From positions 90,499-154,498 of the forward strand of contig CACAND010000001.1 in assembly GCA_902533795.1 (NCBI GenBank): DNA of 64,000 nucleotides, given 5' to 3'. The translations under genes and the position numbers were made by a program. Source of the DNA: an uncultured Candidatus Actinomarina sp. Lineage in GTDB: Bacteria > Actinomycetota > Acidimicrobiia > Actinomarinales > Actinomarinaceae. This document shows positions 3,459 through 59,812 of the stretch, in pieces (within the stretch, counting starts at the first letter, position 1; the number at the start of each line of letters is the position of its first letter). The notes beneath the pieces were generated by a model. That model saw only the letters and a list, made by a program, of their open reading frames with translations. It was not told the DNA's origin and made no database searches.

Positions 3459-4121
3459 TTACGAAACTTTTTCTCCTGACTGAACTCGAGCCATTTGTAG
3501 TACTAATACACCAAGACCGACTTTGTTAATTATGTCAGCAATTGTGTATAGAACTTCACGAATAGCATCGAAGTCTCCAACTACAGGTGCAATATATCCT
3601 AACGGATAGATTATCCAACCTACAAGGATTAAGTTCTTAATGTTTTCAAAAGCTACTGCTTGATCACCTTTAAGACCTTCTCCTTCAGCTTGAAGATTTC
3701 TCATTAGCCAGACGTAAGTTGCCATAGCAATTACAAATCCTGTCCAATATTCGTTGCTTCCTGCTGCTGATGTTTCTCCGTAGTATCCTGCACCAATCAT
3801 TACTGTTGCTGCAATTCCCCAGTTACGGACTGCCTCATTATATGCGGCACCCTTTCTTGTAACGGCTAGGACCTCTACGAACATCAAAGGAACAGTTAAG
3901 ACCCAGTCAACGTATCTTAACCCTGTATCATATGATCCACTTTCCCAAGATGCTCCCATCTTCTGATAGTGATACCATGCAATACCACAGACAAGTGCAG
4001 AAATATATACACCACGTCTATGTTCTGGTTTTACCTCTCTTGATGAAGCAAGTAAAAATACTGTTCCTGCAAGCATTCCTACAGTTGCTACCATAAAGAG
4101 ACGATATGTTAGTTCTTCCAT
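3459..4121 (-). CDS. Proton-pumping microbial rhodopsin (marine actinobacterial clade, MACR-like), DTE motif
   Basis: 7 TM helices. Helix C RYVDWVLTVPLMFVE (D, T, E, with Leu at the tuning position), helix B His (WYHY), retinal Lys in DIINKVG. SD AAGGAG upstream. Confidence 0.97.
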   Translation of the reverse strand: MEELTYRLFMVATVGMLAGTVFLLASSREVKPEHRRGVYISALVCGIAWYHYQKMGASWESGSYDTGLRYVDWVLTVPLMFVEVLAVTRKGAAYNEAVRNWGIAATVMIGAGYYGETSAAGSNEYWTGFVIAMATYVWLMRNLQAEGEGLKGDQAVAFENIKNLILVGWIIYPLGYIAPVVGDFDAIREVLYTIADIINKVGLGVLVLQMARVQSGEKVS

Positions 4122-8478: not shown

Positions 8479-9374
8479 CCCTTAACTGCTCCTCCAATTA
8501 ATCCTTTTATAAAAAATCTTTGCAAGCTAAAAAATACAATTAAAGGAACAATCATTGATATTACTGCGCCAGATGTTCTTAAATGCCATGCTTCACCATA
8601 ATTACCAACAGTTAATTGAGCCACATGAGATGTGATAACCATATTTCGTGGATTTATTCCTAAAAAAACATTGGCAACAAGGAAATCATTGTATACCCAC
8701 AAAAACTGAAAAGTTGCGAATGCTGCAATGCCGGCAATCGATAAGGGTAGTGCTAGGCGAAAAAATGTAGTCAGGTGTGATGCTCCATCCATTTTAGCTG
8801 ATTCAATAACACTTCTTGGAAGACTCATCATAAAATCTCGAAGTAAAAATGTTGCAAGTGGTAATCCAAATCCAGTATGTGCAAACCACACAGCAACAAA
8901 CGTTCCATTTATGTTCAATTCAGGAATAAGAGGAATTCCAAAAAGTATGGCTCCACTTTTCATAAGTTTGAGCAAGGGAATTAATGACATTTGTAAAGGA
9001 ACAATCATCATTGCTACTACAAAAAGAAATGCAATATCTTTACCCCGAAAATCAATGAATGCAAATGCGTATGCGGCAAATGCAGCAATCGTAATTGGAA
9101 TAATGGTAGATGGAATAGTCACTGCAAAAGAATTAAAAAATGATCTACTTAAATTTTCTGCAAATAGTATTTCTGAATAATTTTGTAATGTAAGTTCGTC
9201 TAAAATTGTTCCACTCGAAATTGAATTCCACCAAGCGTATCTTTTTACAGCTTGTTCGTCTCTGAAGGAACTGAGAACAAAACCAATATATGGGATCATC
9301 CATGTTAAGGAAATAGTAATGAGAATTATTTTTGTTACTGGTTTGTCATACCATTTTTGATTATCTAAGTTCAT
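8475..9374 (-). CDS. Carbohydrate ABC permease (AglG/MalG-like)
   Basis: EAA-like loop ESAKMDGAS, FQFLWVYND, TM helices. Confidence 0.92.
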   Translation of the reverse strand: MNLDNQKWYDKPVTKIILITISLTWMIPYIGFVLSSFRDEQAVKRYAWWNSISSGTILDELTLQNYSEILFAENLSRSFFNSFAVTIPSTIIPITIAAFAAYAFAFIDFRGKDIAFLFVVAMMIVPLQMSLIPLLKLMKSGAILFGIPLIPELNINGTFVAVWFAHTGFGLPLATFLLRDFMMSLPRSVIESAKMDGASHLTTFFRLALPLSIAGIAAFATFQFLWVYNDFLVANVFLGINPRNMVITSHVAQLTVGNYGEAWHLRTSGAVISMIVPLIVFFSLQRFFIKGLIGGAVKG

Positions 9375-49728: not shown

Positions 49729-50640
49729 ATCATCATCTTTAAATAATTCAGCAACTGCACCAATACTTCCAAGAGTTGCAGAAAGATCAGCAGGTAAGAA
49801 AATTTTAGTAGCTTTGCCGTTTGCAACTTTTTCGAGAGATTCAAGATATTTAATTGCGATCAAGTCATTTGTTGGATCACCCTTGTGAATAGCGTCAAAA
49901 ACTTTTTGTATAGCTTCTGATTCACCATCAGCAATGGCAATTTTTTCATATTTTTGAGCATCGGCTACTGCTTTGAGTGCTTCTGCTTCACCCTCAGCAC
50001 TTAAAATTTGGGACTGTCTTTCGCCTTCCGCAGTCAAGATAGCTGCTCTCTTTTCACCCTCAGCTTCTGTAACAGCTGCTCTTCGATCTCTTTCAGCTTT
50101 CATGACTTTATTCATTGCATCCTGAACGTCTTGTGGTGGGTCAATTCTTTGAATCTCAACACGAACTACTCTTGTACCCCATTTATCAGTTGCTTCATCA
50201 AGAATGAGTTTTAAAGATGTATTAATTGTTTCTCGAGAAGTAAGTGCTGCATCAAGCTCTAGGTCACCAATAACATTTCTCAAATTGGTTTGTGCAAGTT
50301 TTGTTGCAGCAGTTATAAAGTCACCTACGTTATAAACTAATTTTTTTGGATCAGTCGGTTCATAATAAATGACTGCATCAACTGTAATTGTAACGTTGTC
50401 TTTAGTGATTACTTCTTGTGGTGGAACATCTATAACTTGTTCACGCATGTCTACAACAATTAATCTCTCTATACCAGGAATCACTATATTTAAACCTGAA
50501 GTTGCTTCACGATTGTATTTACCAAATCTTTCAATTAAGCCTTTTTCAAATGGCCTTAAAATTCTAAATATTCTAAAAGCTACAAATACTAAAAGACCAA
50601 ATAGTATTACGCTTCTTACGAGTGAAAAGATAAATTCCAT
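49696..50640 (-). CDS. SPFH/band 7 (stomatin-like) membrane protein
   Basis: [28 protein letters not shown] repeats. Confidence 0.93.
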
Positions 50641-50680
50641 AGTATTAGTTTATTATTGATAAAGTTATACGTTGATTTGT

Positions 50681-51049
50681 TTAACTATTTGTTTCTTCTG
50701 ACTCTTTTTCTTCTTGTTCATACCTACTTAAAGCAAGCATAAACATGATGAATAGAATCAATGAACCTGCAAAATATGTAAGAGGTATGATTCTGATCTC
50801 AAGTGCATTTAAACCGTCGATTGATGCAGGAGCAGGGCCTCTTGGTGCATAAAGAAGAAAAAGGAAAGAATTAATAACTAGCCAACCAAAAGTAGCAGCA
50901 CCAACAACTAAAAATCCAAGCCTTCTACCAAGATTTGTTGCATTCAAGACAAAAGTTGAGCCAAAAAAAGAAAGTATGAAAAATATAAATAGAACTATTC
51001 CGGTAAAAGTAAGGTTGGACGATAAAAGTGTCCTCATTATTTCACGCAT
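50681..51049 (-). CDS. Small 3-TM protein, last gene of the Rieske/cytochrome b operon
   Basis: Hydrophobic. Overlaps the stop of the diheme cytochrome c gene. Confidence 0.7.
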   Translation of the reverse strand: MREIMRTLLSSNLTFTGIVLFIFFILSFFGSTFVLNATNLGRRLGFLVVGAATFGWLVINSFLFLLYAPRGPAPASIDGLNALEIRIIPLTYFAGSLILFIMFMLALSRYEQEEKESEETNS

Positions 51050-52466
51050 CAGGTGTCATTCCTCTCAAATAATCTATTACTAATTCTATATCTGACTGTG
51101 GAAGCACTGCACCAAAACCAGGCATTTTTCCACCACCTACTCCATTCACTCCATACCCTTTACCGTTTACGGAACCATTAATGATAAAGTCAATAAAATC
51201 ATCACGTTCTTTAAATTGAATGTTTACTCTTCCTCCCCTTAAAGCAGGCCCCAAGCCACCTGAGCCAATTTGTTTAGTGTAAGCAGCACCAGCAGAATAA
51301 CCTGCAGTATGACATCTTGCACAATATGCATTAAATATACCTACGGCTCTAATTGCTTTATCGTAATCTCCGTCGAAAGTTGAATCAGCTATATCTTGGA
51401 AATCGATAAGCCACAGCTTTTGTTGGTATGCATTTTCTAAAAATGCTAAACCTGTTTCAGCTTCATCCATAAACTTGTCATATCCATCAGTAAGTATTCC
51501 AAGATTAATAACTTTTGTTTCAAGTTCAGACAAGAAACCTCTAACTATAGAAGCATCTTTCCTTCCAGGAATCGATTCCTCCTCGTCTGGATTAAGATTT
51601 AATACTGGAGTTCCTAACATTTCAGTTATCGTTTCACTGTATGCTGAGAGATCAGTTTCAACACTGTCATACAATCCATCTTCATCAGTATCAATACCGC
51701 TTTGTCTAGAAATTAACGCTGAGACGACCTCAACTGCTTCAATTGCGATTGGTAATCTAATTGGTGCCATTTCTATATCGTTTATTAACTCATTTTGTTT
51801 GGCTATTTCACTCTCAACTTGTAAATCGGAATTTTCTATTCTTAATAATGATGAATTTATATTTCCCTCAATTTCAAGCAATTCTTCATTTTGAGGAATT
51901 TGAAAGGAGTGTAAATACTCAATCAAATCACTTAATTGGCCGTCGTTCATAGGTCCACCACCTTTAAGACCCCAAGCTGGCATTGGTGAATTTGCTCTTC
52001 CATAGATAAGCCAATATAAAACTTCATCATCATCGTATCTGTAAAATACATCATTAATAGCAGGGGCTACCCAAGTAACACTTACCCCACTTCTTTTTTC
52101 AACATACGATGCAGCACCACCACTTCCATCTGCACCATGGCAGTTACCACACCCAAATTCTTCATATAAATGTTGCCCTCTTTCTACAGAAACATCATCA
52201 AATTCCTCTACAAAGCTTTCTTGTCTAGCTGGTTCACCTAAATAATATAAAGGAATCATAATTGTTAAAAGAGAAGCTAAAACAACAGCAACTGACAAAA
52301 TCTTATCTAGCTGAGTTGTCTCAAGCTGGTCATCAGGTAAATATTTTTGAAGATTTCTTGGTACTTTTTTAATCTTTCCTGCACCTCGAAATCCGACAGC
52401 AGAAAAGTATGCAATTGCGCCGATAACAGCTAAAGCAATAAGTGTTATAAAAAGTGAACTATTCAT
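51042..52466 (-). CDS. Membrane-anchored diheme cytochrome c
   Basis: CGNCH with SPMPAW, CARCH with KMPGF, two N-terminal TM helices. Confidence 0.9.
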   Translation of the reverse strand: MNSSLFITLIALAVIGAIAYFSAVGFRGAGKIKKVPRNLQKYLPDDQLETTQLDKILSVAVVLASLLTIMIPLYYLGEPARQESFVEEFDDVSVERGQHLYEEFGCGNCHGADGSGGAASYVEKRSGVSVTWVAPAINDVFYRYDDDEVLYWLIYGRANSPMPAWGLKGGGPMNDGQLSDLIEYLHSFQIPQNEELLEIEGNINSSLLRIENSDLQVESEIAKQNELINDIEMAPIRLPIAIEAVEVVSALISRQSGIDTDEDGLYDSVETDLSAYSETITEMLGTPVLNLNPDEEESIPGRKDASIVRGFLSELETKVINLGILTDGYDKFMDEAETGLAFLENAYQQKLWLIDFQDIADSTFDGDYDKAIRAVGIFNAYCARCHTAGYSAGAAYTKQIGSGGLGPALRGGRVNIQFKERDDFIDFIINGSVNGKGYGVNGVGGGKMPGFGAVLPQSDIELVIDYLRGMTPDA

Positions 52467-52468
52467 TA

Positions 52469-53347
52469 TTATTCCTCAGGTGCGGCAATAGTAATACATG
52501 AAATACCTTGGGGATATTTAACTGACATTCCAGCAGCACGTGGAGATTCTATGATAGAACCCGTATCAATAATAAATTTTCCAGATGAGTTTACATTCAC
52601 TATGAATCTATCAAGATTACGAGGTGCTGGTCCAGCGTAGTATTCACCAACCATATTATATTTTGATCCGTGACAAGGACATTCAAACCCTTGAGAGGTA
52701 TTACACCAAGGGACTCTGCAACCAAGGTGTACACACCTTTGATAAACAGCAACAAGTCCATCAGCAACTGTTCCACTATCAGAAAATTGTGAGTTTCCTG
52801 ATTGTTCGAATGGTAATACATAAGCTCTAGCAGCTGGGATGAAAGCAGGAATCACAGATCCATCAGATTGAAAAATTTGGTCTTTTAAATCTTGAACTCT
52901 TCCTGCGTCAATCTTAGAACCAAAACCTCCAGAGACTTTAGGATAGAAAAATCCCAGCCAGGAAATTAATTGAATTCCGGCGAAAGCGCCGAAAGTAATT
53001 CCTAATGCTTTTCCCAGGAATTGTCTACGAGTCATTCCAGCTTCTTCTTCTGATATTTCTTCGTAAATAATTTCTTCTTTTACTTTTATTGATCCATCTG
53101 TTTGAATATCATCTTTTTCTTCAATATCTTCAGATAAATTTTCTTCTTCATTTTCAGGTTCATCAGGAGCTAAAAAGTTTGTTTGTGATTTATCTACTTT
53201 TAGTGCTCTCTTATCTAAATTTTTCTTCCAATTCAGCCTTTTATTTACAGCTTTAGGCGTTCTACCAGTGACTACTGCAATGATTCCAATGACGCCAAAT
53301 AAACCGATAAAAGCAATTGCAATAAATGAAAGTTGTACCAGGCTCAT
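52469..53347 (-). CDS. Rieske iron-sulfur subunit of a menaquinol:cytochrome c reductase
   Basis: CVHLGC and CPCHGSKY boxes, internal Tat motif TRRQFL, extra N-terminal TM. Confidence 0.95.
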   Translation of the reverse strand: MSLVQLSFIAIAFIGLFGVIGIIAVVTGRTPKAVNKRLNWKKNLDKRALKVDKSQTNFLAPDEPENEEENLSEDIEEKDDIQTDGSIKVKEEIIYEEISEEEAGMTRRQFLGKALGITFGAFAGIQLISWLGFFYPKVSGGFGSKIDAGRVQDLKDQIFQSDGSVIPAFIPAARAYVLPFEQSGNSQFSDSGTVADGLVAVYQRCVHLGCRVPWCNTSQGFECPCHGSKYNMVGEYYAGPAPRNLDRFIVNVNSSGKFIIDTGSIIESPRAAGMSVKYPQGISCITIAAPEE

Positions 53348-54099
53348 TCGAAATGGACCCAGTCAAGTAAGTCATCAAACCAAACACCATCAATCCAAGG
53401 ATATGTCCAGTTCCAACCTGGGCCTCTAAATAATATACCAATTAAACTCAATGTTCCCGCTCCTGCCAGAAAAAATGTCCAAAGCATAATTGCATATTTT
53501 CTTTTTGACGGTTTATTATCCTTATTTCTATCTATATATGGAATAGCCATAAATGCTGCCACACCAATAATTAAAGGAATCATAACTCCAGCAATCTGTG
53601 GATCCCAGTATGAAAGTAATTCTTGTAAACCAAGGAAATACCATGGTGCTTTTGCAGGGTTTGGAGTAATGTTTGGATTTGCTTCTTCAAGTAATGGGGC
53701 CTGCAAAATTGCGCTAATAAAAATAAGAAAAGCTGTCATAGCCATCAAAGATATAAATTCTGGAAGCATTAAATGTGGCCAGGTGTTTACTTTATCTACT
53801 GGCTCAGAAGTAGGTTTTTGTATCGGTTTGGCTTTTACAACTGTCAATAGTCTCTGTGTAACTCTTGTTTCTGGAGCAAAATCAACTTCAGCTGGTATAT
53901 CAGCTTTTACAGCTGCTGCTGGTGCTGGTGCTTCTTTGACTTCAATTGGTTTTACATCTATAACTTCTGGTTCTTTTGAAATAGTTGTAGGCTCTGCCTC
54001 ACCCTTCATTTCAGCTAATGCTTGCTCTACAGATATACCTAAAGCTTTTGCTCTTGCCTCAGCTGTTTTTATTAATAAATGTTCTGGAATATCAACCAT
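53344..54099 (-). CDS. Cytochrome b C-terminal subunit (subunit IV/PetD-like) with an N-terminal extension (start moved to ATG 54099)
   Basis: TWPHL, APLLEEANP, TPNPAKAPWYF (PEWY-equivalent), PYIDR. Confidence 0.88.
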   Translation of the reverse strand: MVDIPEHLLIKTAEARAKALGISVEQALAEMKGEAEPTTISKEPEVIDVKPIEVKEAPAPAAAVKADIPAEVDFAPETRVTQRLLTVVKAKPIQKPTSEPVDKVNTWPHLMLPEFISLMAMTAFLIFISAILQAPLLEEANPNITPNPAKAPWYFLGLQELLSYWDPQIAGVMIPLIIGVAAFMAIPYIDRNKDNKPSKRKYAIMLWTFFLAGAGTLSLIGILFRGPGWNWTYPWIDGVWFDDLLDWVHFE

Positions 54100-54110
54100 A
54101 TATATAAAAA

Positions 54111-54890
54111 CTAGAGGGGACCAGAGATCCCTCCATCCTTTCTGACTCTCCAAAAATGGATCGCCATAAATATAACGATTATGAACGGGAGAAATAAAAC
54201 ATGTAAAACATAGAAACGGAGCAAAGTAGCTTCTGTTGCTTCTAATCCTGCAAATAAGGCAAATTTTACCTGAGCGCCAATTACAGGTGTGTAGCTAGCC
54301 ATGTTTCCTCCAACGGTAACCGCCCAAATAGCTAACTGGTCCCATGGAAGAAGATACCCAGTAAAAGATAAAAGCAAGGTTAATAAAAGCAAGATAACCC
54401 CAATTACCCAGTTAAACTCTCTTGGTGCTTTATATGCTCCATGATAAAACACTCTTGACATGTGAAGGAAGACTACGATGACCATTATATGTGCAGCCCA
54501 CCTGTGCATATTTCGTACTAATGAGCCAAAAGCTATTGAAGTTTGTAGAGATTGAATATCAACATAAGCCATTTCAGTTGGTCTAAAATAAAACATTAAC
54601 CATATTCCTGTAATTGTAAGAACAATAAATGTAAAAAAGCTTAAACCTCCAAGACATAATGTGTAAGACAATCTCACAGCATGTCTTTTAACCTTTACTG
54701 GGTGAAGATGGTACAAAACATTGTTCATAACAACATATGATCTGTTTCTTGGGCTGTCGGAATATCCTTTTCTGAATGGTGATCCTGGACGAAAGATACT
54801 TCCCCATAATGAGCTTTCCTTCAGTGAGTCCCCTAGACCTGCACTTATATCTTTTACACGATCTCTAAACTTTATTTTTTCATTCTTCAT
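54111..54890 (-). CDS. Cytochrome b6-like N-terminal subunit (PetB-like)
   Basis: CLGG, RNMHRWAAH...LHMSRV, PREFNW, GYLLPWDQ, LH-x14-H, GISGPL C-terminus. Confidence 0.95.
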   Translation of the reverse strand: MKNEKIKFRDRVKDISAGLGDSLKESSLWGSIFRPGSPFRKGYSDSPRNRSYVVMNNVLYHLHPVKVKRHAVRLSYTLCLGGLSFFTFIVLTITGIWLMFYFRPTEMAYVDIQSLQTSIAFGSLVRNMHRWAAHIMVIVVFLHMSRVFYHGAYKAPREFNWVIGVILLLLTLLLSFTGYLLPWDQLAIWAVTVGGNMASYTPVIGAQVKFALFAGLEATEATLLRFYVLHVLFLPFIIVIFMAIHFWRVRKDGGISGPL

Positions 54891-55340
54891 TTAAAGTCTT
54901 CCATATATATATCCATGTCTATCATTTCTTTCTCCAGAGTCTTCATCCCATGGAGCTTCATAGACACCGTTATTAATTGCTGCATCTGCCAACGATCCTG
55001 CAAATTTACCCAAAGAAATTACTCCTGTTGGACATCTATCAACACATAATGCACATCTAGTACATGCATCTTCGTCAACAACAAAAAATCCTGATTCATT
55101 TTCTTCCATACTTGGTGCTTCAACATTGATAGAGTCTTCAATAGCATCTGTTGACAAGTAGTGAATACATTTCCATGGACATATATCAACACAACCTTCG
55201 CATAAAATACATTCTGCTTCATCTATGTGTAGAAATTGTTTCGGTCTTACTCTTGATGAAATCTTTTCAGCATCAACCATGGCAAGGTTGTATTGTTTTT
55301 CAAATTCAGGCATCTCAATAAGTACTTCTGATTTAGCCAT
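54891..55340 (-). CDS. 2x[4Fe-4S] ferredoxin
   Basis: CILCEGCVDICP and CTRCALCVDRCP. Confidence 0.9.
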   Translation of the reverse strand: MAKSEVLIEMPEFEKQYNLAMVDAEKISSRVRPKQFLHIDEAECILCEGCVDICPWKCIHYLSTDAIEDSINVEAPSMEENESGFFVVDEDACTRCALCVDRCPTGVISLGKFAGSLADAAINNGVYEAPWDEDSGERNDRHGYIYGRL

Positions 55341-55926
55341 CAGCACCTACCTTTACTACTTCTTTTCCATAATCAGAAATTCTTGTTTTACCTCTCTCTT
55401 TTGCTTCATTGATATCCTGAATTAAATATCCAACAACAAAAGCGGTTACTAATGCACCTGTAGAAATTCCAAGTTGAATAATATCTTTAAGTGCTCCAAG
55501 ACTGAGACCAATTTCATTACCAAGAAAAAGAATAGGCGGAAAGTTTATAAATTCTCTTTGATTAGTCCATTCAAGAGGTCCCTGAGAAAGGTTAAGCCAT
55601 TCAGATGGTAAAACTCCAAAAATTAGTGCGAATTGGATCCAGCTTAAGAAAGCAAGATATGTTGCTCTTGCCCATGTCATCTCTGTATCTTCCCAAGCTA
55701 ACATTGCCATTCCAATCAAAAGAAGTTGCCCAGCTCCAAATGCTATTAGTTGGCCAATAGTTTGCATTAACCATCCTCGAGGCATCCAATTAAAGTAATC
55801 AATTACTTCCCCCTCTGGAAAACCAGCAAAATGTGCAATAATGACCCCGATAGTGACACCACCGATTCCAGCAAATATTAAAGCTACGCCGATTTTGTAT
55901 CGATTAGTAAATATAAAATTTAACAA
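55333..55926 (-). CDS. Uncharacterised 4-TM protein, first gene of the cytochrome b operon
   Basis: Hydrophobic segments. Overlaps the ferredoxin start. Confidence 0.75.
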   Translation of the reverse strand: MLNFIFTNRYKIGVALIFAGIGGVTIGVIIAHFAGFPEGEVIDYFNWMPRGWLMQTIGQLIAFGAGQLLLIGMAMLAWEDTEMTWARATYLAFLSWIQFALIFGVLPSEWLNLSQGPLEWTNQREFINFPPILFLGNEIGLSLGALKDIIQLGISTGALVTAFVVGYLIQDINEAKERGKTRISDYGKEVVKVGADG

Positions 55927-56095
55927 GTTTCCCTCTACACGTCATTAACTCAAAACTTTCAATACCTATTGTATCAAGAATTGGGTACATAATATAAATT
56001 TTATAACGGTACTTTTTTAAGAAATTACATATTTTATTGACGTATTTTTTACAGATTAATAGTAAAGTCAAATTGAGAACTTACTATTTAAACAA

Positions 56096-57499
56096 ATGAA
56101 AATAAAAATTTTTCCAAAAAATGAACAAGAATTTTCAAAATTTTTTATTGTTGTTATGCCCTTTTTATTATTACTTTTTGGAGGTATATCACTATTAAAA
56201 GAAGCTTATTTTCTTTTTGTGAATATTCTTCCCCAAAATATTGTATTTAATTACGGTTTTCTAGATATATTAAATAATCATATAACTTATAGCCTTTTGC
56301 TATCATTCTTAATCGTATTTTTAACTTCATATCTTTTACCAAAAACTCTTGGCAGGAGGTTGGTTATATTTCCAATTTTCTTCCTAACCTCACTAGGTGT
56401 AATAGGTTTAGAGTCTTTAGATTTATTATTAGGGTTTTTGTTTCCCAATAACTTTTTTTCTTTTGGTAATACAAGTTATACAATGCTCTTCAAAATTTTA
56501 ATTTTGTTTGCTTTTGTAAGTCTTTTATCAATAAATATTCTTGCCAAAAAAGAGGCTTCCATGTTTATAAGTGCGCAATATTTATATGGAGCAGCTTTAT
56601 TTTATGCTCTTTCATTAGTTATTTATCGTGGAAATTTTTCTGTATTTAGTGATAATTTTTTTATTAACTCTATGTATGTATCTACACATATATATGTTGG
56701 ATATTCTTTTGTATTTTTAGCATTGCTTCATTTTATGACTACAAAGGGAATCAACGGAACATTATATAGTAAAACTTTAGGATCAATTAGTTTTTGGGGA
56801 TATCTATTTTTATTGCCATGGACTAACTTTAAATTTTATTTTGGTTCAGTTTTGCCTAATTGGATTGAAAACATTTCACTTTATTTATCATTAAGCTTGG
56901 CTCTACCACTGCTTGCAGTCACAGTTAATTTTTTTAGAACTGTAACAACTAGAGATGAAGAAAATAAAATAATTTATGGCCTTGTTAGTTTTTCGTTTGG
57001 AATTTTCCTAGTAACTAATCTCTTTCAAATTGTTTCATCATTATCAAACATTATCCCCATACTTAGTCTTACAAGTTTTGAAATTGCAATAAGATATGGC
57101 TACGTTTTTAGTTCTATATTGATATCTATTGCTTTTATTTATTATCTCATTCCAAAGATCTTTGGTAGAGAAGTAAAATATACAAGACTTGAGTCTCTTA
57201 CTGCCTATACTTTGAAAATTGTTGTATCTGGCACATTATTCTCTAATGCTTTAATAGGTATAATTTCTGGGTATTCGTGGAATGCTGGTGCAAATGCAGG
57301 AAATCCAACAATATATGGTGAAGGTTTTGCGTTGTTATGGTCGCTAATAAGTACTCCTTTATCAGTAAATTTGTTTTTATCAGTTTTGCTCCTTTTACCA
57401 TTTTTTCTATTCTTTATATCTGTGATAAAAGCCATAGTAAATGGAGAAATCACAGAGGCTGAAACAATAGAGCTTACAGAAGAAGAGCTTCCAGTATGA
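56096..57499 (+). CDS. Degenerate cbb3-type oxidase subunit I (CcoN)-like membrane protein lacking the heme/CuB histidines
   Basis: About 12 TM helices. Retains LYSKTLGSISFW, LPNW, VNFFRT, YYLIPKIFGRE. Followed by a CcoO-like gene. Confidence 0.65.
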   Translation: MKIKIFPKNEQEFSKFFIVVMPFLLLLFGGISLLKEAYFLFVNILPQNIVFNYGFLDILNNHITYSLLLSFLIVFLTSYLLPKTLGRRLVIFPIFFLTSLGVIGLESLDLLLGFLFPNNFFSFGNTSYTMLFKILILFAFVSLLSINILAKKEASMFISAQYLYGAALFYALSLVIYRGNFSVFSDNFFINSMYVSTHIYVGYSFVFLALLHFMTTKGINGTLYSKTLGSISFWGYLFLLPWTNFKFYFGSVLPNWIENISLYLSLSLALPLLAVTVNFFRTVTTRDEENKIIYGLVSFSFGIFLVTNLFQIVSSLSNIIPILSLTSFEIAIRYGYVFSSILISIAFIYYLIPKIFGREVKYTRLESLTAYTLKIVVSGTLFSNALIGIISGYSWNAGANAGNPTIYGEGFALLWSLISTPLSVNLFLSVLLLLPFFLFFISVIKAIVNGEITEAETIELTEEELPV

Positions 57500-57716
57500 G
57501 TGAACTCTTAAGTAAAGTCGCAGAAATATTAAATGCTCCAGAATCGTTGGTACAACGATCTGCAGAGGCTAGAGCGGAAGCATCAGGTAAAAGTGTTGAT
57601 GAGGTTTTACAATCTTGGGCAGGTGGTGAAAGTGTAGCTGCTGTCGAAAAGAGTGTGGAAGAACCAGCACCTGTGGAAGAACCAGCACCTGTGGAAGAAC
57701 CAGCACCTGTGGAAGA
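57496..57716 (+). repeat. 221-bp perfect direct repeat, copy 1
   Basis: Identical by base comparison to 58289-58509. Starts exactly at the ATG. Confidence 0.95.
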
Positions 57717-58296
57717 ACTCACAACTAAAGATGAATCTTCGATTGATGTTCAAGAAGATGATGATGAAGAAATTGTTCAACTTTTAATAGAAGAAGAACT
57801 TATAGAAGCTAAAAAAGAGAGTTCATTTGCAGTCTTAATGGGAGTAATTGGAGTTGTAGTATTCACATATTTATTTGCTTTTTCAATTCCAAAACAACAA
57901 AGCGAAGATCTCGTATTGGAATCTTTAAATAATTCCGTACGCGTAAGTGAAGAAATTCTTGAAGGTGCAACAGTTTATAATCAACTTAATTGTCAATCAT
58001 GTCATACACAGAATGTGAGGGTGCTAATACCTGATTCACAAAACGGAAAAGTTTTAAAGAATAGGTTTGCAAATAAAAATTTAATTCTTAATACTGGATT
58101 ACTAAGGTTAGCTCCAGATTTATCTACTCTTGCATCCAGAGAGCCAACAAATGATGGGGACTGGCTTAAAAAATATTTGACCGATCCATCATCAGTAAAA
58201 GAAGAGATTCCGCATCCATCAATAAATTTCTTAAATGAACAAGATTTAGATTATTTGATAACTTATTTATTATCTTTAGGAAGTACAAATGAGTGA
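57496..58296 (+). CDS. CcoO-like monoheme cytochrome c with an N-terminal repeat module
   Basis: GATVY...CQSCHTQNVR, RLAPDLS, WLKKYLTDP...P, DYLITYLLSLG match the CcoO pattern. Confidence 0.75.
   Translation: MSELLSKVAEILNAPESLVQRSAEARAEASGKSVDEVLQSWAGGESVAAVEKSVEEPAPVEEPAPVEEPAPVEELTTKDESSIDVQEDDDEEIVQLLIEEELIEAKKESSFAVLMGVIGVVVFTYLFAFSIPKQQSEDLVLESLNNSVRVSEEILEGATVYNQLNCQSCHTQNVRVLIPDSQNGKVLKNRFANKNLILNTGLLRLAPDLSTLASREPTNDGDWLKKYLTDPSSVKEEIPHPSINFLNEQDLDYLITYLLSLGSTNE
57655..57716 (+). repeat. 18-bp tandem repeat gtggaagaaccagcacct, 3 units plus a partial unit (VEEPAP)
   Basis: Direct reading. Confidence 0.95.
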
Positions 58297-58509
58297 ACTC
58301 TTAAGTAAAGTCGCAGAAATATTAAATGCTCCAGAATCGTTGGTACAACGATCTGCAGAGGCTAGAGCGGAAGCATCAGGTAAAAGTGTTGATGAGGTTT
58401 TACAATCTTGGGCAGGTGGTGAAAGTGTAGCTGCTGTCGAAAAGAGTGTGGAAGAACCAGCACCTGTGGAAGAACCAGCACCTGTGGAAGAACCAGCACC
58501 TGTGGAAGA
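58289..58509 (+). repeat. 221-bp perfect direct repeat, copy 2 (tandem array at 58448-58509)
   Basis: Identical to 57496-57716, offset 793 bp. Confidence 0.95.
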
Positions 58510-59242
58510 GATTGAAAAAAAAGAAGATAAAAATGAAATTGTTTCGGAAGAAAAAGAAAAACCACAGACATTATCTTCTTCAAGAAATACCAAAAAAATA
58601 ACTCAAAAAATAGCTTTTGCTAATAAAACATTAAATATCAAAGTTAATGCAGAAACTACTTTGCCTAGATGGTTAAATGTAAGTTTTGTCCTTATTCCTT
58701 TATTTATAGTAATTGGAATCATAAACACATCATCGACTCAAGAATGTGGTGAAAACGGCATTCTTGATATAGATAGAAAATCTCAATTGACAATTAATTG
58801 TGATGGTTCTGCTTTTGAAGGCAAGGGTGTTGGCTCAGCAAGTTCTATAAATTATATTGCTCTTGGACAACAAATATATTCTGGAGCAGCTGCTTGTGCA
58901 GGTTGCCACGGTGTGAATGGAGGTGGTGGTGTTGGACCAGCATTTACTGGGGGTGAGCTCTACACAACATTCCCAACTTGTAGTGATCATGCACTTTGGA
59001 TTGAGCTAGGATCAGCAGGATGGCAAGCTGATGTTGGGCCAGCTTATGGTGCCGAAGATAAAGTTTCTATTGGAGGAATGCCAGGTTTTGCTGGAAAACT
59101 TACCGAAGATGAACTTTATGCAGTAGTTGTATTTGAAAGGGTTGTCTTCGGTGGTGGGGATACAAATGAAGTATTAGAAGATTGTGGTCTTCTAGAAACT
59201 GAAGAAGAAGTAACTGCTGAAGCAGTAGAAACATCAAGTTAA
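58289..59242 (+). CDS. Membrane-anchored monoheme cytochrome c with an N-terminal repeat module
   Basis: CAGCH, GGVGPAF, GGMPGF (Met ligand), one TM. Confidence 0.88.
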   Translation: MSELLSKVAEILNAPESLVQRSAEARAEASGKSVDEVLQSWAGGESVAAVEKSVEEPAPVEEPAPVEEPAPVEEIEKKEDKNEIVSEEKEKPQTLSSSRNTKKITQKIAFANKTLNIKVNAETTLPRWLNVSFVLIPLFIVIGIINTSSTQECGENGILDIDRKSQLTINCDGSAFEGKGVGSASSINYIALGQQIYSGAAACAGCHGVNGGGGVGPAFTGGELYTTFPTCSDHALWIELGSAGWQADVGPAYGAEDKVSIGGMPGFAGKLTEDELYAVVVFERVVFGGGDTNEVLEDCGLLETEEEVTAEAVETSS

Positions 59243-59371
59243 ATAAACAAATAAATTCAAGTTGATTGTTTAAATAATCAAACTACTATTTTTTTTATGT
59301 TGCCAGCAATATATATTCATGTATTTTTGATCGCATTTAGTATTGTTCTTTTCTATGTAATTTTATAAAAT

Positions 59372-59812
59372 ATGGCCAAAAAAAAGAAAGAGAAAAGAGC
59401 CGTAGGTTGGAAAGAACACGTTGCTCTTCCTGATTTAAAGATTAAAAGTGTAATAGCAAAAATTGATACTGGTGCAAATGTTGCAACTATAGATGCTGCA
59501 AACATAAAATTTATTACTAAGAATGATATTAAGTACGTAAAGTTCACTGTTAAAAAAAGAAACAATACAATTAGAAAAACCTCTGCACCTCTTGCAGGAT
59601 TTAAAAGAATAAAAAGCTCTAATGGTGATGTTGAAAAAAGACCGTACATAAAAACTGATATCCTGATGGATGGTATTACAAAAAATATTGAACTTACTCT
59701 TACCGATAGAGGACCTATGGATTACACGATGTTGATTGGAAGAAAAGCCTTAGGGAGAAGATGGGTAGTTAATCCATCCATAGGTTTTTTGACAAAGCCT
59801 TCAGGAGAATAA
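59372..59812 (+). CDS. RimK-associated retropepsin-like protein
   Basis: [26 protein letters not shown]...MLIGR. Confidence 0.88.

Follow-up and report, generated by a model that had tools for sequence, protein, structure and literature searches.

Candidatus Actinomarina is an abundant group of the surface ocean, and one of its genomes carries a locus that raises a simple question: why would a cell keep a heme-copper oxidase subunit that has lost its metal ligands, and keep it back to back with its complex III? The locus lies in a stretch of 64,000 nucleotides (hereafter the window; positions 90,499 to 154,498 of the forward strand of contig CACAND010000001.1, assembly GCA_902533795.1) and consists of 10 open reading frames (ORFs), here called p1 to p10, in two divergent operons. 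The left operon, transcribed in the order p7-p6-p5-p4-p3-p2-p1, encodes a cytochrome b6-type complex III with a ferredoxin-like subunit (p6); the right operon encodes p8, a homologue of the CcoN subunit of cbb3-type oxidases, followed by two c-type cytochromes, p9 and p10. The answer that we favor, with a probability of roughly 0.55, is that a noncatalytic relic of a cbb3-type oxidase would scaffold c-type cytochromes at the only complex III of the cell, and that the ferredoxin-like subunit may accept electrons from KorAB, a 2-oxoacid:ferredoxin oxidoreductase.

p8 has 3 histidines in 467 residues. In CcoN of P. stutzeri (3mk7_A), we take H60 and H347 to be the heme b ligands and H345 to be the heme b3 ligand, and we assume functional roles for H243, Y251, and E323, Y251 presumably being the cross-linked active-site tyrosine. 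When p8 was aligned with this protein by HMMER (E value, 1.7e-7), H345 fell in a gap, H347 was matched by R333, and the CuB ligands H207, H257, and H258 (numbered as in the excerpted text of PMC3578206) were matched by H198, K246, and F247, respectively; H243, Y251, and E323 aligned with S, L (L240), and F. By MAFFT, p8 has N, S, K, F, I, and Y at the six ligand columns, where canonical rows have H. H198 and H62 of p8 are not conserved even in the genus, and high-G+C relatives in other families of the class Acidimicrobiia have 5 to 7 histidines, 0 of them at ligand columns. Across the p8 family, none of the six histidine ligand positions is conserved, nor is any residue type there; in an alignment of 49 members there is no invariant His, Met, Lys, Cys, or Tyr and no conserved charged or polar residue within the membrane segments, the invariant or near-invariant positions being G, P, W, T, and L plus two loop or tail glutamates. 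The TIGR00780 model gives p8 only 32.4 of the 583 bits required. With its metal ligands lost, p8 is predicted to be unable to bind heme b, heme b3, or CuB and hence to reduce O2.

The ligand-less protein is not a peculiarity of one genome. A profile search of 1.84 billion representatives returned 2488 proteins at an E value of ≤1e-3 and 457 (distinct 50%-identity clusters) at ≤1e-30. When 151 rows (the best 150 of the 2488 representatives plus the window protein) were scored at four ligand sites, 84 had no histidine at any of them, 25 had all four, and 42 were mixed. A close homologue is named as a hypothetical protein of Candidatus Actinomarina at NCBI and others are filed under Acidimicrobiia bacterium; the family carries the label "cbb3-type cytochrome oxidase subunit 1." The gene also appears to be maintained: the ratio of nonsynonymous to synonymous substitution rates (dN/dS), a rough measure here, was 0.07 to 0.08 for p8 against two relatives at ~80% identity, compared with 0.03 to 0.05 for the bc genes and 0.06 for p10, and the p8 frame is open in 21 of 24 genus genomes, at 48 to 99% identity. 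In one single-contig genome (G009), tblastn finds p8 interrupted by a single frameshift near 8617-8621 (L023:7968-9363), with the halves otherwise intact; we dropped this copy as a candidate for a real pseudogene, and the break may be a sequencing error or very recent. Because p8 is without ligands yet under purifying selection, a scaffold role for it is reasonable. The sequence-only reading of this DNA had offered a scaffold or an ion conduit; the former suggestion stands, whereas the latter finds no conserved charged residue inside the membrane to work with.

The ORF list and the family scores bear out the layout that had been read from the letters alone, that is, two divergent operons with the gene content given in Table 1 and a 169-bp gap. 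Every coordinate is as first noted, except that the start of p4 was revised (see below). The G+C content of the window is ~30 to 37%. A scan of positions 50400 to 59500 for promoters and terminators found no more than chance would give (23 promoter-like sites; mean of shuffled sequences, 34.2). Contigs from four marine RNA libraries (three studies) cover pieces of both operons.

Table 1. Features of the divergent complex III/pseudo-CcoN locus (positions in the window)
Feature	Position	Strand	Description or evidence
p1, small membrane subunit, 122 aa	50681-51049	-	~3 hydrophobic segments; last gene of complex III operon; no family
p2, membrane-anchored diheme cytochrome c (QcrC-like), 474 aa	51042-52466	-	two CxxCH; Pfam Cytochrome_CBB3 3.4e-15, Cytochrom_C 2.5e-12
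p3, Rieske 2Fe-2S subunit	52469-53347	-	CVHLGC and CPCHGS boxes; Pfam Rieske (PF00355) 1.5e-7
p4, subunit IV (PetD-like)	53344-54099 (ORF list to TTG 54153)	-	Cytochrom_B_C (PF00032) 6.2e-7
Type A module of p4	53977-54105	-	module profile
p5, cytochrome b6-type subunit	54111-54890	-	Cytochrome_B (PF00033) 3.5e-44
p6, cytoplasmic 2x[4Fe-4S] ferredoxin-like subunit, 151 aa	54891-55346	-	two CxxCxxCxxxCP; 0 hydrophobic segments
p7, membrane protein with 4 transmembrane (TM) segments, 197 aa	55333-55926	-	first gene of left operon; 4 hydrophobic segments; no family
Divergent intergenic region, 169 bp	55927-56095		between p7 and p8
p8, CcoN-like heme-copper oxidase subunit I homologue without metal ligands (pseudo-CcoN), 467 aa	56096-57499	+	COX1 (PF00115) 42.6 bits, cut-off 34.8
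p9, CcoO-like monoheme cytochrome c	57496-58296	+	type B module 57496-57645, acidic linker, one TM, one CxxCH
p10, second monoheme class I cytochrome c	58289-59242	+	type B module 58289-58438, linker, one TM; Cytochrom_C 32.4 bits
239-nt direct repeat encoding module and linker of p9 and p10	57496-57734 and 58289-58527	+	copies 97% identical

Linkage of the two operons, which had been expected to hold in relatives, does hold. All ten genes are present in the same order in 7 of the 8 genus loci for which flanks were available; in the eighth (G002), Ns stand where p9 is expected, and an apparent loss of p9 there was rejected, as the run of Ns belongs to the assembly and the gap falls at the 239-nt repeat. 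A strong CcoN-like match was obtained in 44 genomes outside the genus, of which 40 loci were fetched, the other four being cut by contig ends; p8 lies divergently beside p7/p6 in 38 of the 40. p7 was syntenic in all 35 further loci, and p1 is 50 to 86% identical across the class, with its position unchanged. In a draw of 201 genomes from the class, the CcoN-like profile matched 88 (families f1, 42/47; f2, 20/20; f10, 5/8; f12, 8/9; f15, 6/6), with zero matches in f3, f4, f5, f8, and f11, and pseudo-CcoN spans at least ten families. The ferredoxin-like subunit was matched in 178 of these 201 genomes, and five genomes without a CcoN-like gene retain the order p6-p5-p4-p3-p2-p1. Since this order persists where the CcoN-like gene is absent, the core of complex III and its ferredoxin subunit are class-wide traits, and pseudo-CcoN marks a large subgroup.

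A second group of ligand-less CcoN proteins comes from Verrucomicrobiota (record titles Terrimicrobiaceae, Spartobacteria, and Chthoniobacter). Genes for alternative complex III (ACIII) adjoining cbb3 genes have been described in verrucomicrobial methanotrophs and Opitutaceae (PMC8498564, in the excerpted text), and the excerpted text of PMC6688271 likewise reports ACIII beside cbb3 genes in verrucomicrobial methanotrophs; both papers take these genes for a working oxidase. Our reference locus (L034) encodes, in order, an ActB-like protein, ActC (NrfD), ActD (PF11821, 5.3e-61), a cytochrome c, an ActF-like protein, a 205-aa ORF, a ligand-less CcoN, a FixO-type cytochrome, a third cytochrome c, and COX2. 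We compared 11 of the 16 verrucomicrobial loci found, leaving out five short ones, and the order of the reference was shared by all 10 further loci as far as their contigs extend. Three verrucomicrobial genomes with a ligand-less CcoN each hold two intact A-type COX1 genes. Among the 30 best loci from 151 Verrucomicrobiota genomes, 18 encode all six histidines and 7 at most two; one (L120) is that of the reference genome and is ligand-less, and 4 have doubtful ORFs. Ten loci were fetched with flanks (L131 to L140), and in them the ligand-complete copies (6/6) and the ligand-less or partial ones (4/4) occupy the same ACIII operon.

In a FastTree phylogeny of 195 rows, all 36 Acidimicrobiia ORFs fall among ligand-less rows, and the verrucomicrobial ligand-less rows are nested within ligand-complete ones, so that at least 6 changes of ligand state are required; support values in this tree are local only, and many rows are compositionally skewed. 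Loci L122, L124, L127, and L130 (likely wrong frames) and L104 and L126 (no ORF past the overlap filter) were excluded from both counts and phylogeny. The phylogeny and operon contexts indicate that Verrucomicrobiota lost the ligands independently of Acidimicrobiia, inside ACIII-cbb3 operons. We read this to mean that working cbb3 oxidases beside a quinol:cytochrome c oxidoreductase would have lost their catalytic center more than once, with the gene set retained. Comparative genomics in two phyla gives good support to a functional tie between the two operons.

The cytochromes that accompany p8 retain their heme motifs. p9 scores 28.6 bits with FixO, just below the cut-off of 29.6, and 27 bits with Cytochrom_C, and has one CxxCH; p10 also has one CxxCH, not two, and this motif is kept in all 43 homologues examined. 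Over 95 aa, p10 is 28% identical to the third gene product of the verrucomicrobial triad. The right operon had been described as cofactor-less, a description that fits its CcoN-like protein but not its two cytochromes. In 13 of 36 clean Acidimicrobiia ORFs, the p8 frame runs on into a CcoO-like domain with CxxCH, and therefore p8 and p9 are taken to act together. The p8 ORF of G034 (L026:7090-9219) is fused instead of to CcoO to a cupredoxin-like tail, a domain called only from its C..H..M motif; the exchange of a cytochrome for a copper protein points to p8 as the anchor of an electron carrier. Apparent CcoN-CcoO fusions in L066, L067, and L077 were rejected because each contains a stop codon. 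In G029 (L027:9446-12454), three ORFs (339, 542, and 177 aa, the last with a WCGPC thioredoxin-type motif) lie between a CcoN-CcoO fusion and the complex III genes, and these look like cytochrome c maturation genes. Within the window, the near identity of the 239-nt repeat copies (97%) in p9 and p10, the rest of the two genes being unrelated, suggests gene conversion.

What does the left operon encode? We searched the whole assembly (G000; 979,545 bases in 13 contigs, 90.3% complete) with the PF00033 profile, and p5 was the single match. Since it is the sole cytochrome b in the genome, the locus is the cell's only complex III and not an extra system. p5 scores 293.1 bits with the NCBIfam ExtP model, over the cut-off of 290. 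Across 44 sequences, H129, H143, H230, and H245, the four histidine ligands of two b hemes, are invariant, with spacings of 14 and 15 residues that presumably match those of b-type helices B and D; C79, in YTLCLGG, is also invariant, and we take it to be equivalent to the heme ci-binding cysteine of b6f complexes, in YCLGG. The N-terminal extension of p5 is long, basic, and almost invariant, and its C terminus, on the cytoplasmic side, is invariant; both are plausible docking surfaces. The cytochrome b is split over adjacent ORFs, PF00033 falling on p5 and PF00032 on p4. Because relatives of p4 begin with M-x-E-I-P-E, its true start is most likely the ATG at 54099 (251 aa) and not the TTG at 54153, which abolishes the overlap with p5; p4 contains an invariant KAPWYFLGLQE stretch and weakly matches ExtQ. 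The best NCBIfam match of p3, at 71.4 bits, is the b6-f iron-sulfur subunit. The N terminus of p3 bears an additional helix, and a twin-arginine-like motif, RRQF, lies within the protein. p7 has no Pfam or NCBIfam family, and a protein atlas search with it gave only hypothetical Actinomycetota clusters. The models for the actinobacterial QcrCAB complex stayed far under their NCBIfam cut-offs (NF050120, QcrB, 122.2 of 500 bits; NF050121, QcrA, 38.2 of 275; NF050122, QcrC, 23.4 of 200, the last being the weak match of p2). With its split cytochrome b and different gene order, the locus is as unlike canonical QcrCAB as the sequence-only reading had it.

The intact terminal oxidase, whose presence elsewhere in the genome had been proposed as a check, is on contig 4. 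Searching the assembly with PF00115 returned two genes, p8 at 44.9 bits and an intact subunit I at 522.4 bits; the latter belongs to an intact A-type (caa3) operon that also encodes a subunit II with a C-terminal CxxCH domain (CtaC), subunits III and IV, and a Caa3_CtaG assembly factor. A working caa3-type oxidase is therefore available to complex III; cytochrome bd was not found in the assembly. Two NuoH genes lie on contig 7 (4588-5607 and 27081-28016), each followed by a NuoI-like di-cluster frame, and this suggests that a genome smaller than 1 Mb has two gene sets of complex I type. The description of the cell as rhodopsin bearing also proved right: a bacterial rhodopsin gene (PF01036, 107 bits) lies within the window at ~3489-4100 on the minus strand (G000:C1:93987-94598), ~47 kb upstream of the locus.

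The two operons share more than adjacency. An N-terminal module common to subunits of both had been noticed in the sequence, and it is real; it also occurs on two proteins beyond the window. A profile of this module, which is ~35 residues long, found five carriers in a six-frame translation of the genome (E value, ≤4.1e-11): p9, p10, subunit IV (p4), a polytopic membrane protein of 372 aa, and the C-terminal tail of KorA, the alpha subunit of a 2-oxoacid:ferredoxin oxidoreductase. Subunit IV and KorA have the type A module (IPEHLL.RSAEARAKALG.PVEQVLAEM.G); both cytochromes and the extra membrane protein have type B, with an extra N-terminal helix and a W.GGE end. Every copy is tethered via acidic, proline-rich repeats. 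The extra membrane protein (contig 4, 63555-64673; L046:856-1971) has no family, and an atlas search with it gave only hypothetical Actinomycetota clusters. Its gene directly follows the caa3 operon and CtaG; membership of the cta operon was nonetheless rejected, as homologues in G030 (387 aa) and G047 (429 aa) are located elsewhere.

Outside the genus there are usually four carriers, which in G030 and G047 are subunit IV, the two cytochromes, and a homologue of the extra membrane protein. There are two carriers in G078 and none in G036, and in G027 subunit IV alone bears a module, a partial one. In the 201-genome draw, the module was present in 97 genomes (f1, 47/47; f2, 20/20; f10, 6/8; f12, 9/9; f15, 6/6; f23, 1/1; f25, 2/2; and weakly f5, 2/7) and was not found in f3, f4, f7, f8, or f11. 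It tracks pseudo-CcoN at the family level, which, the genomes being kin, is not a statistical test. The two f25 genomes (G096 and G140) have two module carriers each, yet no match to the ligand-less CcoN profile or to the ferredoxin subunit. In build, the module is predicted to be a short two-helix unit between flexible linkers, a layout reminiscent of the peripheral-subunit-binding domains of 2-oxoacid dehydrogenases; docking is its most likely role.

The presence of the module on KorA draws attention to p6. KorA of the Actinomarina assembly lies on contig 12 (L045:249-2177; POR_N, 5.6e-50), where the contig cuts its N terminus and the module stands at the C terminus. In G095, KorA is 903 aa long (L098:872-3583, minus strand; TIGR03710, 649 bits against a cut-off of 482.75) and carries a type A module at both ends. 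KorB follows KorA, the beta subunit in the Actinomarina assembly scoring 255.4 bits with TIGR02177, just below 261.9. Module-bearing frames of 770 to 920 aa were seen in six further genus genomes of 26, the identity of KorA being checked in the two genomes just described. p6 is well conserved, with 68% mean column identity over 41 sequences; PKQF.HI, ahead of the first cluster, is invariant, and the tail has a conserved GY.YG.R. Among solved structures, polyferredoxin domains and NuoI come closest to p6, and its database names are generic only. An E1 component of 2-oxoglutarate dehydrogenase (OGDH) over the cut-off was not found in the assembly, and 2-oxoglutarate is therefore probably oxidized via KorAB. 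By a scan with one motif of this 90% complete assembly, p6 is the only small di-cluster ferredoxin, the other matches being two NuoI genes, an SdhB-like frame, and a 726-aa frame. Given the missing OGDH E1, the lack of another small di-cluster ferredoxin by that scan, and the module common to KorA and the complex, p6 may be the acceptor for KorAB electrons, a candidacy confined to one lineage.

These observations can be assembled as follows. The left operon would encode the sole menaquinol:cytochrome c oxidoreductase, a complex of b6c type that would have been enlarged by a cytoplasmic 2x[4Fe-4S] protein and two small subunits in the membrane. The right operon would be a relic of a cbb3-type oxidase once coupled to complex III, in which p8 has been selected as a 12-helix membrane scaffold holding two membrane-anchored c-type cytochromes. 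Beside complex III, the scaffolded pair could serve as an electron relay or buffer between p2, the diheme cytochrome c, and the caa3 oxidase, could bridge the two complexes, or could do both. The module, at the cytoplasmic ends of four membrane proteins (subunit IV, the two cytochromes, and the extra protein of 372 aa), would serve for docking. More speculatively, a tethered KorAB would reduce p6, and electrons would enter the n-side of cytochrome b6, making the complex a ferredoxin:menaquinone reductase. Gene content, ligand loss, selection, synteny, fusions, and the distribution of the module are observations; the physical association with complex III, the relay role, the binding by the module, and the KorAB electron path are what we infer. 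That all ten proteins form one supercomplex, as the sequence-only reading proposed, is not supported by these observations.

Several observations weigh against this account. A relay may be superfluous, as p2 is already a diheme protein and CtaC has its own cytochrome c domain. As many as 113 of the 201 class genomes are without pseudo-CcoN, and most of these still keep the complex III core; in G029 and G034, respectively, 3.6 and 4.4 kb separate p8 from the complex III genes. Substitution is faster in p8 and p9 than in the bc genes (dN/dS for p9, 0.125 to 0.15), and all of the dN/dS values are rough because dS is saturated. Coverage of p8 by the RNA-library contigs is thin (X1 between 56188 and 57405; X5, 56433-57032), and transcription, its strand, and its level are not provable from contigs. 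The module has no Pfam family even at an E value of 10, and a profile search of the PDB brought up only designed helical repeats and one weak dehydrogenase stretch. As to the ferredoxin part, p6 was not found between p7 and cytochrome b6 in 2 of 40 loci, G203 (L086) and G075 (L088), where the other genes are present as far as the contigs reach, and the subunit is therefore dispensable in some lineages. The KorA-module fusion, verified in two genomes, was not found in G030, G047, or G078, and it therefore cannot explain a class-wide ferredoxin subunit.

How far should the account be extended or replaced? The boldest version has the module build a megacomplex of complex III, the dead-oxidase cytochrome scaffold, the further membrane protein, and, in Actinomarina, the TCA-cycle enzyme KorAB, the bound p6 giving the b6-type complex a ferredoxin:quinone reductase activity through heme ci; we hold this only tentatively. 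We consider it unlikely that the triad p8 to p10 is instead a self-standing periplasmic redox or sensing unit, such as a cytochrome anchor, a peroxide or nitric oxide (NO) scavenger, or an assembly factor, adjacent to complex III for coregulation only. The intact c hemes of its cytochromes, the separation of the operons in G029 and G034, and the fact that most of the class runs its complex III core without the triad would all fit such a unit, but the triad adjoins a quinol:cytochrome c oxidoreductase in two phyla, with the unrelated enzymes Rieske/b6 and ACIII, and subunit IV shares its module with both cytochromes. If p8 were a proton or ion conduit, forming a gated leak or a coupling site on complex III, its conservation under selection would be explained, and the 12-helix oxidase fold normally contains a proton pathway; the lack of any conserved charged or polar intramembrane residue in the family, together with the S, L, and F found at positions H243, Y251, and E323, whose roles are as assumed above, makes this quite unlikely.

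The sequence-only reading had also suggested that the ten proteins, in a cell energized by rhodopsin, could pass electrons from menaquinol to cytoplasmic ferredoxin in a cyclic or proton motive force-driven reverse flow. A ferredoxin-like subunit on the n-side of a b6-type complex and a rhodopsin gene are indeed present, but the evidence points the opposite way: the module of subunit IV is borne by KorA, a producer of reduced ferredoxin, the ferredoxin subunit occurs class-wide, and no ferredoxin-consuming partner was identified. We consider such reverse flow quite unlikely. The active-site histidines are said to be completely conserved in all heme-copper oxidase families but one, and the ligands of certain families include methionine, lysine, or aspartate (PMC11214002, in the excerpted text). 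The latter is a precedent for the binding of redox cofactors by p8 through nonhistidine ligands, in an unusual oxidase or NO reductase. Such binding is very improbable for p8, whose family conserves no residue type at the six ligand positions and has no invariant Met, Lys, Tyr, Cys, or His. Least credible of all is that p8 is a decaying pseudogene or neutral relic. It does evolve faster than its neighbors and is interrupted in one genus genome, but that break is a single frameshift between intact halves, the frame is open in 21 of 24 genus genomes and at least ten class families, dN/dS is far below 1, and the 457 distinct clusters found at ≤1e-30 argue against decay.

The preferred reading, a noncatalytic oxidase relic at the sole complex III, can be set against known systems. 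The b6c complex of Firmicutes (QcrABC of Bacillus) and the cyanobacterial b6f complex resemble the left operon in having a b6 protein and subunit IV as separate polypeptides, four histidine ligands, a cysteine at what we take to be the heme ci position, and a b6f-type Rieske protein. They differ from it in that the locus encodes a separate diheme cytochrome c and two additional small membrane proteins, places a ferredoxin-like gene immediately before b6, and has a long, conserved, basic N terminus on b6 and a docking-type module on subunit IV. Split cytochrome b is treated in the excerpted text of PMC3578206. Likeness to ExtOPQ of Geobacter lies in the cytochrome b6, which passes the ExtP model, and in the weak match of subunit IV to ExtQ; the Geobacter Ext cluster has multiheme cytochromes and a porin and, in the excerpted description of PMC5877670, neither the ferredoxin gene nor the pseudo-oxidase partner of our locus. 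With actinobacterial QcrCAB, as far as the excerpted descriptions of the obligate bcc-aa3 supercomplex go, the locus has in common the phylum, a diheme cytochrome c, no need of a soluble cytochrome c, and an A-type oxidase as acceptor, but its cytochrome b is split and not long, and its order is b6-IV-Rieske-c and not qcrCAB.

The right operon resembles CcoNOP of P. stutzeri (3mk7/5djq) in that p8 is homologous to CcoN and p9 to CcoO, with a third cytochrome c gene after them; it differs in the loss of the six histidine ligands and of the cross-linked tyrosine position, in a third subunit with one heme motif, and in the module on both cytochromes. Among the structure matches of p8 is entry 6xkw, which we take to be a solved bc1-cbb3 supercomplex. 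The verrucomicrobial ACIII-"cbb3" operons likewise place a quinol:cytochrome c oxidoreductase beside a CcoN/CcoO/cytochrome c triad and include ligand-less CcoN copies, but they have the unrelated ACIII in a single codirectional operon, no cytoplasmic module, and no ferredoxin subunit. An ACIII-aa3 supercomplex of Flavobacterium is cited in the excerpted text of PMC8498564. For the sister order of Actinomarinales, PMC12008989 reports standard complexes only, and the excerpted text of PMC8357290 reports cbb3-type oxidases for several metagenome-assembled genomes in a section that includes an Acidithrix relative. Our literature searches turned up neither an account of this locus nor one of the module or of any heme-copper oxidase family without ligands, in agreement with the suspicion that this locus was undescribed.

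The finding bears on how such genomes are read. Genome papers take cbb3 genes as a sign of high-affinity respiration (PMC8498564, PMC6688271, and PMC8357290, in the excerpted texts), which is predicted to be wrong for this family in Acidimicrobiia and in part of Verrucomicrobiota. As ligand-less CcoN proteins are labeled cbb3, oxygen niches deduced from metagenomes may be misread. If the preferred reading is true, the body of an oxidase has a second, structural use in supercomplexes. On the boldest version, p8 would be the first case of a heme-copper oxidase retained as a pseudoenzyme for structure alone, one that evolved at least twice. The class-wide ferredoxin subunit and the module shared with KorA offer a testable model for the entry of reduced ferredoxin into a b6-type complex, and, if that model is true, the complex would provide a natural, tractable case of the long-debated entry of electrons from ferredoxin into b6f.

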